Shown here in pieces: positions 1 to 8,036 of a DNA stretch of 64,000 nucleotides. Location of the stretch: positions 1-64,000 of the IMG/VR virus record IMGVR_UViG_3300009509_000010, one strand, 5' to 3'. Below the pieces are notes generated by a model. The model saw only the letters and a list, made by a program, of their open reading frames with translations. It made no database searches and was not told the DNA's origin. Within the stretch, counting starts at the first letter, position 1, and each line of letters opens with the position of its first letter. Made by a program: the position numbers and the translations under genes. Source of the stretch: a virus.

Positions 1-192
1 GGTCGACCCACGTCGAGGCCAACCGTCGGAGGTCGACCCACGTCGAGGCCAACCGTCGGAGGTCGACCCACGTCGAGGCCAACCGTCGGAGGTCGACCCA
101 CGTCGAGGCCAACCGTCGGAGGTCGACCCACGTCGAGGCCAACCGTCGGAGGTCGGCCCACGTCGAGGCCAACCGTCGGAGGTCGACCCACG
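1..192. repeat. 30-bp tandem repeat (GGTCGACCCACGTCGAGGCCAACCGTCGGA) x6 plus a partial copy, truncated by the window start
   Basis: Six consecutive 30-bp units, identical except one A>G in unit 6, then a 12-bp partial unit; no spacers. Confidence 0.97.
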
Positions 193-1080: not shown

Positions 1081-3555
1081 GTGCAACGGAACGTTACGTT
1101 ATCCGTATGGTCTAGTCCTATGGCCACAAGGGGCAACCTCGTTTGTGCCCCGTGGTCGGATTGGGTCAATTTGTTGTCAAACCATGTGCGGCGTCGAGAC
1201 AAGATCGGGCCGGGGTACGCTTGCGGGGTGATCCCCGAGGGCAAGCCTAGGCGTCAAGAACACGTCGAGGCCGCCGATATGGTTTGCCTTGATATAGACA
1301 AGGGGACCGACGATCAGGTTTGCCAGATAATTCAAGCGTTTAGGCCCTACGATTTCGCCCTTTATACAACCTTTACGCATGCTTATTACAAATTAGGCAC
1401 CAAGGACACCCCGGCGGGGCCGGGGGATACCAGACAAAGCAAGCTGCGGGTCCTCCTCCCTTTTGCCAGGCGGGTGACCCCCGAGGAATACTCTCGGATC
1501 TGGCCCGTGGTGATGCGGCTGGCAAGGCACCCGATCGACGGGTGCATCCAAACCCTAAACCAAGTCTATTTCCTCCCCTCGGCCATGCCGGGGGCCCCGG
1601 TATTGGCCCAAGCCAACCAAACCGGCCGGTGGCTCGATCCCGACACCCTTTTGGAGCTCGCCGAGGCCCCCACCGAACCCACCGCCCCCACCGAACCCAC
1701 CGCCCCCTTGCCCTCCGAGGAGGTGCTCGATCAGGTGGACGCGATCGTGCGCAAGCTTGCAAAAATGCTGAGATCGCACCCTCTCAAGGCGGCGGCCAAC
1801 GCCTTGATCAACGGGCAATCCCTCGACTTTGGGGATGGCCGACATGACACGATCTTGCGGCTCACCGGGTGGCTTGCGTTCAAGACCGAGGCGGATCCCT
1901 TGGCCCCCGAGGTGGTCGAGGCTTTGTTTTCCAAATCGGTGGAAACCATGCGGCGGGAAAAGCCGGGCGACATGGCCGGGGTGACAACCGAGGCCGCGGT
2001 GAGGGCCTACGAGACCGCGATCACCAAGGCCGTCACCGCCAAACAAAAGGAGCGGGTCGAGGCCCAAGCAAAATACGCGGGCCCCCGGTCACCGGAATGG
2101 CCCCCCGAGGCGATCGAGCGGTGTGCGCAGCTTCAAGAGAGCACCCCCGACGAGCTCGCCTATATTATCCAGCGGGACCGATCCCACTACATTTTGCAGC
2201 CGTCCGGATACTTTTCGGGGCCGTTTACAAAAGAGGACGCGATCGTCGAGATCACCCAAGCCCTAGGCAAGTCGCCGATCAGCCTATACGAGACCAAGGG
2301 CGACGGGTTTAGACCTCGGAGCTTTTCCGAGATTGTCAGACACTACGGCGAGATCGCCCAAGAGGTGGTGGCCGACCTCGCAACGCAACGCAGCTTTTAC
2401 GATCGCCCTACCCGGACAATTCACGAGGCCGTTTGCCCTCTCAAGGCGAGGACCCCGGCCTATGATTCCAATATCGATCAATATATCCGCCTTTTTGCGG
2501 GGACCGAGGCCAACTATAACAAGCTCCTCGATTGGATGGCCTGCTGTCCCGACCTCACAAAAATGTTGTGCGCCCTAACAATCAAGTCGGACCCCGGGAC
2601 GGGCAAAACCTTGTTTGCCCAAGGGCTCGCCTCCTTGTGGTCCAAGGGCGGAGCCCCCGCAAGTCCCGAGGTGATCTTGGGCAACTTCAACGAGGACCTG
2701 ACACGTTGCCCCCTTGTTTTCGCCGATGAAAAATTGCCCAAGTCCTACCGGTGGGATTCGGTGACCGCAAAGCTACGGGCCGAGATCGCAAGCTTAGTCC
2801 GGACCCTCAACCGAAAGTATTACTCACCGGTAGGCCTACATGGATCCTTGCGCTTCATTCTCGCGACCAACAACCCGATGATCCTTGCCTCGAATATTTC
2901 GACCTCGGCCGATTTGCATGCGGTGGCGGTTCGGTTTCTCTATATCGAGCCCGATCCCGAGGCCGAAAAATACCTCCTCCGGTTTGACTTCGAGACAAAG
3001 GACCGCTGGCGAACCGACGGGATCGCAAGTCACGCGCTTTGGCTCCAACAAAACCGCGAGGTAGTGCCCACCGGGCGGTTTTGGGTTACGGGCGATATCG
3101 ACAAAATGCACCGCCTCTTGGTGACCTCGAGCGATTGGAACAGTTGGATCTGTGAGTGGGCGGTTAAAGGCCTGCTCGACGGGTACCGCAAGATCGAGCA
3201 AAACCAAGAAACGGTCGGCCGGGTGGTGGTGCAGGATGGCAAGCTCTACATAAACACCAACGCGATCACCGACGGGTGGCAACTTTACACCAACTATCCC
3301 CACGTGGCGCCCGACCCCCGGCGGATTGCCACCGCCCTACGGTCGATCGCGAGTGACCCCAAGCCGGTCCAAGTCCGGACCCATGGCACCCGGTATCGAT
3401 ATTTCGAAATTGACCTCGGGCACCTAATCGCGTGGGCCGACGAAAAAGGGATCAGCTCCGAGGCCGATATTCATTTAGCGATTGCCCGAGGCCCGGCGGA
3501 GCTCCCCAAGGTGATCGATTTCAACGCTAAGCTAAAAGGAAATGAATACCAATGA
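1081..3555 (+). CDS. Primase-helicase: N-terminal AEP primase-polymerase-like domain plus C-terminal SF3 (D5/DUF5906-like) helicase
   Basis: CLDID, YTTFTH and KLRVLLPF AEP-type motifs; Walker A PGTGKT, Walker B VFADE, motif C ILATNN. Confidence 0.85.
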   Translation: MQRNVTLSVWSSPMATRGNLVCAPWSDWVNLLSNHVRRRDKIGPGYACGVIPEGKPRRQEHVEAADMVCLDIDKGTDDQVCQIIQAFRPYDFALYTTFTHAYYKLGTKDTPAGPGDTRQSKLRVLLPFARRVTPEEYSRIWPVVMRLARHPIDGCIQTLNQVYFLPSAMPGAPVLAQANQTGRWLDPDTLLELAEAPTEPTAPTEPTAPLPSEEVLDQVDAIVRKLAKMLRSHPLKAAANALINGQSLDFGDGRHDTILRLTGWLAFKTEADPLAPEVVEALFSKSVETMRREKPGDMAGVTTEAAVRAYETAITKAVTAKQKERVEAQAKYAGPRSPEWPPEAIERCAQLQESTPDELAYIIQRDRSHYILQPSGYFSGPFTKEDAIVEITQALGKSPISLYETKGDGFRPRSFSEIVRHYGEIAQEVVADLATQRSFYDRPTRTIHEAVCPLKARTPAYDSNIDQYIRLFAGTEANYNKLLDWMACCPDLTKMLCALTIKSDPGTGKTLFAQGLASLWSKGGAPASPEVILGNFNEDLTRCPLVFADEKLPKSYRWDSVTAKLRAEIASLVRTLNRKYYSPVGLHGSLRFILATNNPMILASNISTSADLHAVAVRFLYIEPDPEAEKYLLRFDFETKDRWRTDGIASHALWLQQNREVVPTGRFWVTGDIDKMHRLLVTSSDWNSWICEWAVKGLLDGYRKIEQNQETVGRVVVQDGKLYINTNAITDGWQLYTNYPHVAPDPRRIATALRSIASDPKPVQVRTHGTRYRYFEIDLGHLIAWADEKGISSEADIHLAIARGPAELPKVIDFNAKLKGNEYQ
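1666..1707 (+). repeat. 18-bp in-frame tandem repeat (PTEPTA linker) in the primase-helicase
   Basis: GCCCCCACCGAACCCACC x2 plus GCCCCC. Confidence 0.85.
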
Positions 3556-4163
3556 TACTAGTTAGCCAATCGTATGAGATATTGACCCCGATCGACGGTG
3601 ACCGGATCCTAAAATCAATCGAGCGGGCCGGTCGGACGTGTTACAAGTCCGAGGACAAGATCACCGAACACTCGGCCAAAAAATTCGTCGCGATGATCTT
3701 GGCCCGTGGCCACGAGTCGGTGATTGAGCATGAATCGATCTCGGTAAAATTCACAACCGATCGCGGGGTGTCCCATGAGATCGTGCGCCACCGTCTCGCG
3801 TCATACTCCCAAGAGTCAACGCGCTATTGCCGATACGAGGGCGAGATCCAGGTTATTGGCCCCCCGGGGCTCAACGAGGAGACTCGCGAAGTATGGCTCC
3901 AGGCCATAGGCGTGGCCCAAGGAGCCTATCAACGACTTTTGGACTATGGCGTTACACCTGAGATCGCGCGGTCGGTTTTGCCGAATGCCCTCAAAACCGA
4001 GATTGTCATGACCGCAAACCTTCGGGAGTGGCGGCATTTTTTCAAGCTCCGAACCGCAAACGCCGCACACCCGCAAATGCGCCAGCTAACACGCCCCCTC
4101 CTCGCCGAGCTCCAAGAGAGAATACCGGTGATTTTTGATGGCGTGGGAGATATCGAGAAATGA
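3552..4163 (+). CDS. thyX: FAD-dependent thymidylate synthase
   Basis: GHESVIEH and RGVSHEIVRHRLASYSQESTRY ThyX signature; NLREWRHFFKLR. Confidence 0.97.
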   Translation: MILVSQSYEILTPIDGDRILKSIERAGRTCYKSEDKITEHSAKKFVAMILARGHESVIEHESISVKFTTDRGVSHEIVRHRLASYSQESTRYCRYEGEIQVIGPPGLNEETREVWLQAIGVAQGAYQRLLDYGVTPEIARSVLPNALKTEIVMTANLREWRHFFKLRTANAAHPQMRQLTRPLLAELQERIPVIFDGVGDIEK

Positions 4164-4675
4164 AGTCTATCCTACCCGTTTTCAACCGCAACATTGCCAC
4201 GTGGCTCCGCCTTTTGGCGGGGTCTGAGGCCTCGCGGGTCGAGCTGCTCGATTGGATGGCCACGGCCCCCGATTTATCCAAGCCCTTGCGGGCCCTCGTA
4301 TTCAACGGGCCGCCGGGGACGGGTAAAACGTTGTTTGCCCAAGGGATGGCCACCCTTTGGGGCCGGGGCGGGACCCCCGAGGACGCCGAGGGGGGCGAGC
4401 AGTGCCCTTTTCTATTCGTGGGCGAGAGCTTCACCCAAATCAAGGGGCTTGAAGCCAAGATCGGGGCCTTGGTGCAATCAAGGACGTGTCGCGTGGTGGT
4501 GGCCACTAACGCCGAGCTCGACCTCCTCAAAACCCGGTTTTTGGTCGTGACCCCCGATCCCAAAGCTGCCGATTTCCTCGGAGCTCAACCAATCGGGTCC
4601 TTGGATGATTGGCGGCGGTCCAAGATCGCGGCCCACGCCATGTACCTACACAAAAACCAAGGGGTGGAGCCGTGA
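4160..4675 (+). CDS. Truncated paralogue of the SF3 helicase domain of the primase-helicase
   Basis: LLDWMATAPDLSKPLRAL...PGTGKTLFAQGMATLW aligns with LLDWMACCPDLTKMLCAL...PGTGKTLFAQGLASLW. Confidence 0.85.
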   Translation: MKSILPVFNRNIATWLRLLAGSEASRVELLDWMATAPDLSKPLRALVFNGPPGTGKTLFAQGMATLWGRGGTPEDAEGGEQCPFLFVGESFTQIKGLEAKIGALVQSRTCRVVVATNAELDLLKTRFLVVTPDPKAADFLGAQPIGSLDDWRRSKIAAHAMYLHKNQGVEP

Positions 4676-4797
4676 TCGTGGTCTTTGCTTTTTGGGCCAC
4701 CACGATCGCGGCGGCGGCCCTTTCGATTGCCTACCCCATGGTGGGGGGTCTCGCGTTGACCGTGGTGGGCCTGATTTATCTTTGGTGTCGAGGGTGA
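4672..4797 (+). CDS. Small hydrophobic membrane protein (41 aa)
   Basis: GTG overlaps the previous stop; product is almost entirely hydrophobic. Confidence 0.55.
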   Translation: MIVVFAFWATTIAAAALSIAYPMVGGLALTVVGLIYLWCRG

Positions 4798-4800
4798 GCC

Positions 4801-5016
4801 ATGACCGAGTTTTTCACCATATCCCGTGACCAAACCGACTACCCAAACCAATTTGTGGTGCGGCGTTACCCAAGCAAAAAAACCGTGGCGGTCTCGTTTA
4901 CGCTCGAGGGGGCCCGGGTGGCCCTCAAAAAACGAGCGCCTTTAGCGGCCCCCCTCACCGGCGGGGTGTTGCCAAACACCGATGGTTGTGAAGTTTGGAG
5001 GGTGGAAAGTGCCTAG
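4801..5016 (+). CDS. Hypothetical protein (paralogue of 7020-7244)
   Basis: TISRDQTDYPNQFVVRR resembles TIYRNPRDYPGQYVARR. Confidence 0.6.
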   Translation: MTEFFTISRDQTDYPNQFVVRRYPSKKTVAVSFTLEGARVALKKRAPLAAPLTGGVLPNTDGCEVWRVESA

Positions 5017-5040
5017 AAAACACGATCGATCCATAGCCAA

Positions 5041-5061
5041 GCCCGCCCCTACGGGGCGGGC
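5041..5061. other. GC-rich hairpin between 19-bp direct repeats
   Basis: GCCCGCCCC-TAC-GGGGCGGGC perfect 9-bp stem; TGCCTAGAAAACACGATCG at 5010-5028 and 5074-5092. Confidence 0.7.
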
Positions 5062-5072
5062 GGGGGGATTGT

Positions 5073-5552
5073 ATGCCTAGAAAACACGATCGCTGCTCGG
5101 GCCATTGTTGCGAGCGGTTCACCTTGCCCCTATCCCCCGAGGAGCTCGCGGCCGGTTATCAGCGGTGGCTCGGGCGAGACAGCCAAGCCCTCACAATGAA
5201 CAAGGCTGAAATCGCGCCGCTTTATCAGGATATCTATTTGATTGCCCCCATGGTGGTCTACCTCGGGCACACCAACAAACACCCCCCAAAGGTCAACCCA
5301 ACCGACGCCGAGCTTTTGGGCAACCCCGAGGAGCAGGGCCATTATTACCGGTGCAAACACCTCGACCCCAAAACGCGGGATTGCACGATCTACGAGATCC
5401 GGCCCGCAATGTGTCGGGGTTACCCCTATAACAACGAGTGCAATTATGCGCGATGTACTTGGAAAAGCCGCAAGGCCAAAAAGCAGACCTCGGCCCAATT
5501 GCGCAAGCGCAAGCGGGCGTTGACGGCCGAGGTCGAGGAGCCGAGAAAATGA
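5073..5552 (+). CDS. YkgJ-family (CxxCxxCC-like) Fe-S/Zn-chelating protein
   Basis: CSGHCC ... CKHLDPKTRDCTIYEIRPAMCRGYPY signature. Confidence 0.85.
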   Translation: MPRKHDRCSGHCCERFTLPLSPEELAAGYQRWLGRDSQALTMNKAEIAPLYQDIYLIAPMVVYLGHTNKHPPKVNPTDAELLGNPEEQGHYYRCKHLDPKTRDCTIYEIRPAMCRGYPYNNECNYARCTWKSRKAKKQTSAQLRKRKRALTAEVEEPRK

Positions 5553-5941
5553 GATCTGATAATAAAACTAGGTTTATGAGCCGGTGCGTTCACTACAAGG
5601 GCCCATGGGACGCCACCAATTGCGCCGCGGGGGTGGAGCGTGCCACCATGTTAGATACCTCCCGAATCCCACCGCGGCGGGTCTGTGATTCACCTGACAC
5701 CACGATTGCTTGTGACAAAAAACAACTCCCCACCGAGGACGATTGGCATGCCAAGCAAGAACGAGACCTCGCGGCCTTGGGTCGTATGGCGGCGATCCGG
5801 TTGGCGATATTTGCCACCGGTGAGACCCAAGGATCGCTAGATTGCCCCTGTTGCAACGGCCGGGTGGGTTTTTCGATTGCAGGCAACGGCCACGTGGCCG
5901 CGGCATGCTCAACCCCGGGGTGTGCAAAATGGATCGAGTAG
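5549..5941 (+). CDS. Cys-rich hypothetical protein
   Basis: ATGA overlap with the previous gene; CVHY, CPCC and HVAAACSTPGC motifs. Confidence 0.65.
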   Translation: MRSDNKTRFMSRCVHYKGPWDATNCAAGVERATMLDTSRIPPRRVCDSPDTTIACDKKQLPTEDDWHAKQERDLAALGRMAAIRLAIFATGETQGSLDCPCCNGRVGFSIAGNGHVAAACSTPGCAKWIE

Positions 5942-6108
5942 AACCCAAGGGCCTAGTGGTCAACGAACGTTGCGACGTGTGCGGCGCGTTTGTGCCCGTG
6001 GTCCAAACCTATTTTTGCATTTGTGGGGTGGTAGTGTGTGGCGATTGTTGGAATCATGACGCCCACATGTGTGTTGATTGTGAATTTGAAAAGGATAAAC
6101 CAAAATGA
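5929..6108 (+). CDS. Small zinc-finger protein
   Basis: CDVC...CIC...CGDC...H..CVDC. Confidence 0.6.
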   Translation: MDRVEPKGLVVNERCDVCGAFVPVVQTYFCICGVVVCGDCWNHDAHMCVDCEFEKDKPK

Positions 6109-6440
6109 ATTGGCATGTGCATTGCAACCTTATAAGAATCTCGCGCCGCGGTTTTCCGCGGCGGGCAATCACGCAATGGCGCCCCAATGCCCCCGAGGCG
6201 GAGCTCCTCGAAAAAATGCCGGTGATTTTTTCCCGGTGTCCCAACTGTGGGGAGGCCCCGTTTGTGCCCTATGTGCGGGGTAAAGTGCAACGCTTGGTTT
6301 GGCCCAACTTCCTATCGTGGTTTTGGGACACCTTGCGGGGCCGGCGGTGGCCTAATTGTGCTTTGATCTGTCGATCGTGTTCCCACCTCGTGGCGTGGGA
6401 GCGGGTCGCAAACGATATCGAGGTGGCAACCAATGACTGA
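6105..6440 (+). CDS. Zinc-ribbon hypothetical protein
   Basis: CPNC ... CRSC; coupled start/stop overlaps. Confidence 0.55.
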   Translation: MNWHVHCNLIRISRRGFPRRAITQWRPNAPEAELLEKMPVIFSRCPNCGEAPFVPYVRGKVQRLVWPNFLSWFWDTLRGRRWPNCALICRSCSHLVAWERVANDIEVATND

Positions 6441-6744
6441 GACTCGAGACCTAAACGAGCAGCTTGACCATCTTCGCAAGGTACACTCGGCCATGGCGCG
6501 AAACGCCACCGCCGAGACCATGATCGGGGTCAGTTGGATCCTAATCGATTACATGCTTTGGACGATAGACCATAGGCAAGCGCCGGTGGACCCATACAGA
6601 CCAAAAACAAAACCCTTTGAGCGAGGACAGCTTTACTCGGTGATCAGTCAATCGGGTAGCGGGTCGGCTGTGGACTTGTTGGGGGATGTTTTACGAGACC
6701 TTGACCAAGCCGAGGCCAAGATCCGGGAGGTGGGCCTTGACTAA
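6433..6744 (+). CDS. Hypothetical protein (tandem paralogue A1)
   Basis: SD GAGG; shares PYxPKTxP and LxGDxxxDLDQAE with the next gene. Confidence 0.65.
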   Translation: MTETRDLNEQLDHLRKVHSAMARNATAETMIGVSWILIDYMLWTIDHRQAPVDPYRPKTKPFERGQLYSVISQSGSGSAVDLLGDVLRDLDQAEAKIREVGLD

Positions 6745-7054
6745 CCAAAATGACCTCGAAAAAGAGATCGAATATCTGCGGGCGTGGTGCAAGGTAAACG
6801 CCCACGATCAAGTTATTCGGACCTCGATCAACCGGCCGGTGGTTGAGGTTCTCTTGGGGGCCTTAAACGCTGAGCCCTACGAGCCAAAGACCACACCGGC
6901 CCAACGGGCCGAGGTGTTGCGGGAAATGGGCCGCCATGTTCAAGGATACGTTTTGAAGTTGTTCGGCGATATCGTTGACGATCTCGATCAAGCTGAAAGG
7001 TGCTTACAAGGTAGACCAAATGAATGCTTACACGATATACCGAAACCCACGTGA
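6737..7054 (+). CDS. Hypothetical protein (tandem paralogue A2)
   Basis: GGAGGT SD then TTG start; PYEPKTTP and LFGDIVDDLDQAE. Confidence 0.6.
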   Translation: MTNQNDLEKEIEYLRAWCKVNAHDQVIRTSINRPVVEVLLGALNAEPYEPKTTPAQRAEVLREMGRHVQGYVLKLFGDIVDDLDQAERCLQGRPNECLHDIPKPT

Positions 7055-7244
7055 CTACCCGGGCCAATACGTGGCCCGCCGGTGGGTGGTTTACGAAGAC
7101 CGGATCGAGCCCGATCATGAACCGCTCGAGGTTTCGCCAGAGCTCTACGTCGTGCGGCAAGCGATCTTTGCGGTGACTCCTGACGTTATTTGTTTACGGC
7201 GAAGCCCGAACGACGATCCCGCGGTGTATGAAACATGGATATAG
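7020..7244 (+). CDS. Hypothetical protein (paralogue of 4801-5016)
   Basis: YTIYRNPRDYPGQYVARRW...DDPAVYETWI. Confidence 0.65.
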   Translation: MNAYTIYRNPRDYPGQYVARRWVVYEDRIEPDHEPLEVSPELYVVRQAIFAVTPDVICLRRSPNDDPAVYETWI

Positions 7245-7516
7245 ACGATCAACAATTCATCGTGATCCCACAACCGACCCTCGAATGGTTGGCCGGTTGT
7301 GAGCTGATCGAGCGGTACGCCAAGGCGTCTGTAGCTATGGCGGCGGTGTCCTCGTATCGAGATCTTTGGTTCAACCGGCGGCGGTTCGAGATTGATTTGG
7401 CCGACGAATTGGTGATCCGCGATCAACTCGGTTGGTGTTGGTATGCGGTGATAGACCTAGTCCTAAAAGACCTCCGAGCTCAGTTGATTGAAGCTATGAG
7501 GAAAAGCAATGGATGA
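7235..7516 (+). CDS. Hypothetical protein
   Basis: Tightly packed in the operon with overlapping start/stop. Confidence 0.55.
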   Translation: MDIDDQQFIVIPQPTLEWLAGCELIERYAKASVAMAAVSSYRDLWFNRRRFEIDLADELVIRDQLGWCWYAVIDLVLKDLRAQLIEAMRKSNG

Positions 7517-7763
7517 TACTTATTACAACCAAAACAGTCTAAGGCTTGCGAGGTGCCCGGGGCCTCACCAATTCAAACTCAATTGCCCCTATACCGACCG
7601 TTGCGAGGTTTGTGGTGGGGTGGTGTTGCGCCCTTGGGTCGAGGCCTACAATCAAGGGCTCGAGCATGGCCGAACCGCTCCTCAACATTGCCCCGGATGT
7701 GAGGCCGAGAATACTCTCGAACCAAACGGGAGCGGCGGCGTGCGGTGCGTCGCTTGCGATTGA
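7509..7763 (+). CDS. Cys-rich zinc-binding protein (tandem paralogue B1)
   Basis: CPGPHQF, CEVC, HCPGC, CVAC. Confidence 0.6.
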   Translation: MDDTYYNQNSLRLARCPGPHQFKLNCPYTDRCEVCGGVVLRPWVEAYNQGLEHGRTAPQHCPGCEAENTLEPNGSGGVRCVACD

Positions 7764-7775
7764 AAGGGTTAATCC

Positions 7776-8036
7776 GTGTCACCTCGAGACCAACGCAGTC
7801 AAGGCAACGCCGAGCGGCTCGACAGCTGCAACCGGCCCCACACATTTAGGGCCAACGTAGCCAACCTCTATCGGTGGTATTGCACTAAGTGCAAAGGGGA
7901 GGTCTCGGAGGGCGAGGCGATATGGTACACCTTGGGCTTTGAGGACGGGTTGGCCAACCTTGGCCATTGCCCGAGCTGCAAACGGCAGATCCCGATCAAC
8001 GGGATTTGCCCCTATTGCGGCGGGGATGTCGGGTGA
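7776..8036 (+). CDS. Cys-rich zinc-binding protein (tandem paralogue B2)
   Basis: CNRPHTF, CTKC, HCPSC, CPYC. Confidence 0.6.
   Translation: MSPRDQRSQGNAERLDSCNRPHTFRANVANLYRWYCTKCKGEVSEGEAIWYTLGFEDGLANLGHCPSCKRQIPINGICPYCGGDVG

Follow-up and report, generated by a model that had tools for sequence, protein, structure and literature searches.

Primase-helicases with an SF3 motor of the D5/NrS-1 type occur in phages, satellites and large DNA viruses and are regarded as self-sufficient, self-loading motors. Self-loading is ascribed to the D5-, NrS-1- and SaPI-type SF3 helicases in one report (PMC9371898). The NrS-1 and vaccinia D5 helicases are hexamers with their ATP sites at the subunit interfaces (PMC7102993, PMC9611036). 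In NrS-1, K525/N526 belong to the channel hairpin, which has been equated with the DNA-binding hairpin of papillomavirus E1, and R555/R556 belong to the arginine finger region (PMC7102993). The AAA+ domain of vaccinia D5 has two channel constrictions, one formed by a beta-hairpin loop and one by a DNA-binding loop (PMC9611036).

The protein described here, which we refer to as the mini-helicase or mini, shares with the SF3 domain of these enzymes a homologous core, the same order of the Walker A, B and C motifs and the same N-terminal helices. Unlike them, it is encoded by a separate gene without a primase, a full collar or a C-terminal domain. It also lacks the Walker B aspartate, the DNA-binding hairpin and the loop that follows Walker B, and it does not match Pfam DUF5906.

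Shorter, motor-only proteins beside a full-length primase- or nuclease-helicase are found in AAV (Rep52/Rep40) and in T7 (gp4B). These are catalytically active motors made from the same gene by means of internal starts or promoters. The mini resembles them in being a short motor-derived protein beside the full-length enzyme, and Rep40 structures were among its fold matches in Foldseek. In contrast to Rep40 and gp4B, it is a diverged separate gene from which motor elements have been removed: thyX lies between it and the primase-helicase, the two proteins are 36% identical, and Walker B and the hairpin have been lost. Tn5 Inh, the short pi proteins of plasmid R6K and papillomavirus E8^E2 are truncated-isoform inhibitors that form mixed inactive oligomers. 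The concept is shared, namely a shortened relative in which the partner-binding parts are kept and the working parts are gone, and the catalytic or DNA-working part is missing from the mini as well. However, those inhibitors are identical to part of the full-length protein, whereas the mini is a diverged paralogue whose binding to its parent is hypothetical. The retained N-terminal helices and P-loop face may be taken as an indirect hint of such binding. Degenerate AAA+ paralogues also act as non-catalytic partners in the clamp loader (delta and delta-prime) and with Torsin (LAP1/LULL1), to which LAP1 supplies an arginine in trans. The mini is alike in concept to these proteins, which have an AAA+-type fold, have lost hydrolysis and work at the subunit interface of an active relative; they are, however, cellular and from a different AAA+ clade, and the arginine is not conserved across minis. 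A conserved dead, pore-less paralogue beside an SF3 enzyme would be a natural trans-acting modulator of the ring, and no stand-alone protein of this kind beside a phage primase-helicase was found described in the literature searched on DUF5906, phage SF3 paralogues and dominant-negative primase-helicases.

A truncated SF3 paralogue in the primase-helicase operon

The window analysed here is the first 64 kb of a 78.8-kb viral contig from IMG/VR, and nearly all of its long ORFs lie on the + strand. PHROG matches included the large terminase, portal, a virion structural protein and tape measure, together with a family-A DNA polymerase, a second helicase and an exonuclease, and the window was therefore assigned to a tailed phage. 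Near-identical DNA was found only in three marine-sediment metagenomes from one study, one of which is possibly the source of this contig, and there was no RNA run among the sequencing runs that contained it. Contigs from the marine-sediment samples showed no variant of the mini when compared with the window, with poor coverage of the mini in the second sample.

The features of the locus are listed in Table 1. The primase-helicase, from here on the parent, matched the DNA primase and helicase families of PHROG and scored 30.4 bits for Pfam DUF5906 (cut-off 27.6) over residues 502-599. The stop codon of the parent overlaps thyX as ATGA, and the stop codon of thyX overlaps the start ATG of the mini in the same way. 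The description of the mini as an intact and translationally coupled ORF in the initial annotation stands. The stop-to-stop frame of the mini comprises only 178 codons and thus leaves no room for a longer N-terminus. Simple consensus scans revealed no promoter- or terminator-like sites in the short junctions of the primase-helicase, thyX and the mini, and such sites within the coding regions were found at about chance level. The hydrophobic ORF that follows may encode a small membrane peptide belonging to the operon of the mini.

Table 1. Coordinates of the features in the window
Feature	Position	Strand	Description
Tandem array	1-192		Near-perfect repeat
Primase-helicase (parent, P0002)	1081-3555	+	824 aa; N-terminal primase-like region, DUF5906-type SF3 helicase domain, C-terminal domain
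TEPTAP-type repeat	1660-1720		Short repeat in the linker of the primase-helicase, residues ~195-215
Parent segment paralogous to the mini	2440-3069	+	Residues 454-663; BLASTP E 7e-38
thyX	3552-4163	+	Flavin-dependent thymidylate synthase; Pfam Thy1 E 1.8e-51; between parent and mini
Mini-helicase gene (P0001)	4160-4675, stop codon included	+	171 aa; stand-alone SF3 ATPase core
Possible hydrophobic ORF	4672-4797	+	41 aa; GTG start overlaps the stop of the mini (GTGA); read from the sequence
Diverged paralogue pair, small early genes	4801-5016 with 6975-7244		35% identity, E 3e-6
Diverged paralogue pair, small early genes	6433-6744 with 6686-7054		28% identity, E 2e-12
Diverged paralogue pair, small early genes	7509-7763 with 7776-8036		33% identity, E 2e-8

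The mini had been annotated as a full-length match to the upstream SF3 domain. BLASTP aligned its residues 1-171 with residues 454-663 of the parent, with 52% positives besides the identity given above, and this established the gene as a truncated paralogue of the SF3 helicase domain of the phage itself. When tblastn was run with the mini on its own genome, the only matches were the mini and the parent segment. The primase domain is absent, as annotated, and so is the C-terminal domain. The motif changes reported earlier were likewise seen in the alignment: Walker A is retained (GPPGTGKT in the mini and DPGTGKT in the parent), Walker B has changed from CPLVFADE to CPFLFVGE by replacement of the Asp with Gly while the Glu is kept, and the segment RTLNRKYYSPVGLHG is missing. 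This deletion corresponds to about 14 residues, RTLNRKYY...G, of the parent. The mini is also shorter than the parent at three other places: behind the Walker A helix (by 8 aa), directly behind Walker B (7 aa) and behind motif C (12 aa). Beyond what the initial annotation had listed, the mini retains sensor-1 (VVVATN) and a candidate arginine finger (KTRF, compared to AVRF in the parent).

A motif table and alignment were made from six minis and 22 full-length helicase domains. The Walker A lysine was invariant in all 28 sequences, and both the D and the E of Walker B were invariant in 21/21 full-length domains. Among the elements by which an SF3 helicase is recognized, P0001 has the GxxxxGK[ST] of Walker A, a motif C with the sensor-1 Asn and an arginine after motif C, where KTRF aligns with AVRF and with the RRF of NrS-1 (R555/R556). 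In contrast, its Walker B strand does not end in DE (FLFVGE compared to LVFADE), and motif B', the pre-sensor-1 beta-hairpin, is deleted. Pfam DUF5906 gave no match to P0001 at E values up to 1, and the best Pfam matches covered the P-loop only and were below the cut-offs. By homology and fold the mini is a member of the D5/NrS-1-type SF3 superfamily; as a helicase it falls outside, on account of Walker B, the hairpin and the Pfam result.

Predicted fold and the lost hairpin

The AlphaFold (AF2) model of the mini had a pLDDT of 85.5 and a pTM of 0.85, and the model of the parent domain, with a pLDDT of 87.6, showed the same alpha/beta core. In the parent model the deleted segment formed a two-strand beta-hairpin (E128-131 and E139-142 in model numbering, approximately parent residues 573-587) directly before the sensor-1 strand. 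When the model of the mini was searched with Foldseek, the top 10 matches were all SF3 helicases. The best was the helicase region of NrS-1 (PDB 6k9c, 6lrb, 6k9e), with a probability of 1.0 and a TM score by query of 0.64-0.67, and the matches also included PriRep1, the SaPI5 primase-helicase, AAV Rep and B19 NS1. By both the model and the structure search, the mini has the SF3 AAA+ core fold. A structure search of the ESM Atlas with the mini gave DUF5906 proteins at TM scores of 0.73-0.85 and revealed clusters of short DUF5906-only proteins, which may be fragments.

The NrS-1 helicase region (6k9c/6k9e) was also the best sequence match of the family profile (E 8e-9). In the profile alignment the RK of NRKY in the parent stood opposite the KN of NrS-1, and the RF of the family fell on the RRF of NrS-1. 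The lost segment had been named as the DNA-contacting hairpin, and this assignment was supported by the alignment of the parent RK with the NrS-1 KN, whose hairpin is likened to that of E1 (PMC7102993). What is left in the mini is thus a motor core that lacks the channel loops and has an incomplete catalytic site.

Minis in related phages

The nearest relative in IMG/VR was L004, a 93-kb contig whose primase-helicase is 67% identical to that of the window. Its mini (P0041, 200 aa) directly follows the primase-helicase and precedes thyX, so that the order of the mini and thyX is swapped compared to the window. In both phages the two genes are direct neighbours with an ATGA overlap between them (window 3552-4675; L004:10522-11744), and they may form a cassette.

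When 1.8 billion representatives were searched exhaustively with HMMER, about 1000 matches were obtained; the best 150 of these were examined and were almost all primase-helicases of 700-950 aa. The short proteins among these 150 were P0042 (190 aa), P0047 (200 aa), P0109 (188 aa) and P0163 (219 aa), all from Logan assemblies. At least five minis of 188-219 aa are therefore known besides P0001, and all six span the same part of the parent. P0047 and the primase-helicase P0011 are presumed neighbours solely because both sit on contigs of 12299 bases. Matches of 349-460 aa were rejected as minis; P0046 and P0073, which were read, look like N-terminally cut full-length genes with intact motifs.

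All six minis retain the Walker A lysine and none has an intact DE pair in Walker B. The DNA-binding hairpin is deleted in four and retained in P0047 and P0163, the sensor-1 Asn is retained in three and the candidate arginine finger in two, and the GK[ST] signature is degenerate in P0041 (KTSKG). Pairwise identity among the six is 25-51%, with P0041 and P0042 at approximately 51-54% overall. P0041 (L004:10522-11124) and P0042 share an identical C-terminal stretch of 20 residues, KVERAGHLWVEGTPGAMRHL, which corresponds to GRFWV.GD...MHRLL of the parent; the mini of the window ends before this stretch.

No second copy was found in the flanks (up to 7 kb where the contig allowed) of 16 other IMG/VR loci and four JGI metagenome loci, which carry more distant primase-helicases with 26-45% identity. 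Among the loci examined, minis thus appear to occur with one helicase clade only. One of these loci, L023, belongs to a close relative, with a helicase domain that is sister to P0011. There is neither a mini nor thyX within 7 kb downstream of its primase-helicase, so the mini is either dispensable or located elsewhere in this phage.

Further searches added no minis. There was no match among GenBank phages by tblastn with the mini or by megablast with the first 12 kb, and a word-indexed protein search at near lengths returned the query itself only. The same type of search with the six-mini alignment, in which 8000 preselected candidates were scored, returned three known members and is no measure of family size. 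IMG/VR scans with P0001, P0042 and P0047 revealed no relatives, and a scan with P0041 and P0042 together gave only the L004 phage and full-length helicases. Prokaryote genomes scanned with the primase-helicase alignment gave nothing, and thus no prophage relative and no clue to the host. A PADLOC scan gave matches at the level of the P-loop only.

Origin of the minis

A careful maximum-likelihood (ML) tree was built from 35 domains, including the six minis. The minis and the 11 closest full-length domains formed one set with a support of 98/99. Within it the minis were on one side of a branch with a support of 76/86, which was present in 76% of the bootstrap trees, and the 11 full-length domains formed a group of their own (89/89). 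The end branches of the minis were 0.94-4.2 substitutions per site compared to 0.06-0.6 for the close full-length domains, approximately 5-10 times longer. A tree of the same 35 rows with the mini of the window as sister to its own parent was 5.1 lnL units worse and was not rejected (p-AU 0.27). At sites that differ between the two parents, P0001 agreed with its own parent at 6 and with the other at 7, and P0041 with its own at 3 and with the other at 7. A recent duplication of each phage's own parent was rejected because of this lack of preference. The trees favour a single duplication close to the base of this helicase clade, after which the minis diverged rapidly; a recurrent, independent origin is possible. 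In either case the truncated form would be useful.

Selection and regional constraint

When the window was compared to L004, dN/dS was 0.34-0.46 for the mini (dN approximately 0.6), 0.17-0.18 for the helicase domain (dN approximately 0.19), 0.17-0.19 for thyX and 0.19-0.22 for the whole primase-helicase; these values are rough because dS was near saturation (1.1-1.7). The GC content of the mini by codon position (0.61/0.47/0.76) matched that of the other genes of the phage. The mini had been annotated as intact and not decaying, with neutral decay or frameshifts in the homologues named beforehand as evidence to the contrary. Both were looked for, and instead the homologues were open reading frames, dN/dS was below 1 and the codon-position GC was that of a normal gene.

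Mean pairwise identities were then compared by region (Table 2). In the close full-length enzymes no region was better conserved than the one with Walker B and the pore loops (0.83), whereas in the minis this region was the least conserved (0.15). In the minis, the motor centre is thus no longer under constraint while the N-terminal third still is, which is the pattern of a pseudoenzyme that retains a binding function and not of a dying gene.

Table 2. Mean pairwise identity by region
Region	Mini-mini	Mini-close parent	Close parents	All full-length pairs
N-terminal helices, strand 1, P-loop and helix 1	0.47	0.48	0.67	0.44
Walker B, channel loops and helix 3	0.15	0.26	0.83	0.45
Sensor-1 strand to last helix	0.29	0.32	0.61	0.42

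A pseudo-helicase that may act on its parent

As judged from the comparisons above, the mini is a pseudo-ATPase that was derived from a viral replicative helicase and maintained by selection in a small clade. The explanation that we tentatively prefer, while holding it somewhat short of probable, is a selectively maintained, fast-evolving pseudo-helicase that arose from the D5/NrS-1-type core of the phage's own primase-helicase and acts by contact with this parent. The paralogy and the operon position, the pattern across the family, the distribution, the tree, the selection, the regional constraint, the fold and the identity of the lost hairpin all speak, with the same reserve, for this explanation. 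Paralogy, motif losses, fold, conservation pattern and purifying selection were observed directly; the partner and the sign of the effect are what we infer. The functions suggested in the initial annotation, namely a dominant-negative subunit, exclusion of related phages or a decoy, are conjectures.

Compared to its parent, the mini no longer has a primase domain or a C-terminal domain, and most of the collar, the two loops that face the channel and the Walker B aspartate that coordinates Mg are gone too. It has kept the two N-terminal helices, the P-loop with its lysine and the core fold, and in this phage also sensor-1 and the arginine-finger position. From what is known of SF3 and AAA+ enzymes, loss of the channel loops means that the mini should be unable to translocate on DNA, and loss of the Walker B Asp makes ATP hydrolysis almost certainly impossible. 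The invariance of the lysine points to a continued role of nucleotide binding, or at least of the P-loop conformation. The mini would most likely act through contact with the primase-helicase of the same operon, and this contact may require bound nucleotide: the mini would dock on the free ATP-site face of a subunit or of an open ring, and docking would affect how the ring is assembled or loaded or how active it is. It is doubtful that the mini becomes a stable part of the ring, because the collar, which contributes to the ring contacts of D5-type enzymes, is mostly missing. Since a co-made poison would also be costly, transient docking on monomers or open rings is favoured. The co-expression of the mini in one operon with the helicase likewise argues against a simple stoichiometric poison, and we lean towards a weak or transient negative role, or a gating role, over that of a stable poison subunit. 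Mechanisms that need the arginine or the sensor-1 Asn would not be family-wide, given that these are kept in 2/6 and 3/6 minis. Two further observations argue against this explanation: the dN of the mini is approximately three times that of the parent, whereas a tight interface with a slowly evolving parent predicts otherwise, and L023 lacks a mini within 7 kb downstream.

A bolder extension, which we consider doubtful, is that the minis are a previously undescribed class of helicase-derived 'anti-helicases' or gatekeepers, in which a dead SF3 core caps or cracks the ring of a self-loading primase-helicase. Such a class would control when or whose replication proceeds, as copy control or as exclusion of related phages, and may have been invented once, or even repeatedly, in one phage clade.

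The fast evolution of the mini makes a host-directed mimic or decoy the main rival. Here the mini would mimic the ATPase core of the helicase and soak up a host factor or defence sensor, or else it would poison the helicases of superinfecting relatives. The long branches of the minis, a dN/dS 2-3 times that of the neighbouring genes, and catalytic details that vary from member to member while the general shape is kept all fit an arms race or a mimic, and the early region that holds the gene contains three more pairs of diverged paralogues. Immune proteins that recognize phage primase-helicases do exist, such as SPSB1, which recognizes T7 gp4 (bioRxiv 10.64898/2026.06.11.731453). However, the overall omega is below 1 and hence no demonstration of positive selection, PADLOC gave matches at the P-loop level only, and an excluding poison would also strike the phage's own, highly similar helicase; we regard this reading as rather unlikely. 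A positive assembly, loading or bridging factor is about equally unlikely and is a serious alternative to a weak negative role. In this case the dead core would, like other degenerate AAA+ paralogues, assist in opening the SF3 ring or putting it together at the origin, or would tether another protein to the replisome, for which ThyX, the translationally coupled neighbour in both phages, would be the candidate under the same low expectation. Co-expression from one operon suits a cofactor better than a poison, the lysine of the P-loop is invariant in 6/6 minis, the mini and thyX have stayed adjacent and ATGA-joined in two phages despite their swapped order, and L023 is without both genes within 7 kb downstream. 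Against it, the D5-, NrS-1- and SaPI-type helicases are called self-loading, more distant relatives manage without a mini in the flanks covered, and the link to thyX comes from two genomes only.

Still less probable is a functionless remnant of a partial duplication, or of recombination between replication modules, that has so far stayed unbroken. The mini does evolve faster than any of its neighbours, its catalytic motifs were lost differently in each member, it is missing downstream (within 7 kb) in one close relative, L023, and the region is prone to duplication. In contrast, a remnant is hard to reconcile with six members diverged to 25-51% identity that are all open, similar in length and bounded at the same domain borders, with an omega of 0.34-0.46 and a GC3 typical of coding sequence. 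Conservation of the N-terminal region and the P-loop lysine at the level of the full-length enzymes, the confident fold prediction and the ATGA coupling kept in two phages also argue against it. Equally improbable is a small NTPase that is still active and serves a purpose separate from the helicase ring. The mini of this phage has Walker A, the Walker B Glu, the sensor-1 Asn and the Arg position, but the Walker B Asp, invariant in 21/21 full-length domains, is a Gly, and other minis have lost sensor-1, the Arg and, in P0041, the GK[ST] signature. The loss of catalytic motifs across the minis means that ATP hydrolysis is not the conserved property of the family.

If the tentatively preferred pseudo-helicase does bind the ring, it would provide a simple handle on the assembly and regulation of SF3 rings and a clear case of a viral enzyme duplicate turned pseudoenzyme. 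The case is confined to a small family from a few uncultured phages of marine sediment; the idea is testable with recombinant proteins.

Repeats and other duplications in the window

The tandem array at the start of the window is closely followed by a small ORF of divergent orientation and by the primase-helicase. All three forward frames of the array translate into a repeated 10-residue unit, which gives it a period of 30 bp. At the TEPTAP-type repeat, a contig from the second sediment sample had small insertions, and the length of the primase-helicase linker therefore differs among strains. Downstream of the mini, three diverged paralogue pairs were found among the small early genes (Table 1), and the history of this early region (4801-8036) is one of duplication followed by divergence.
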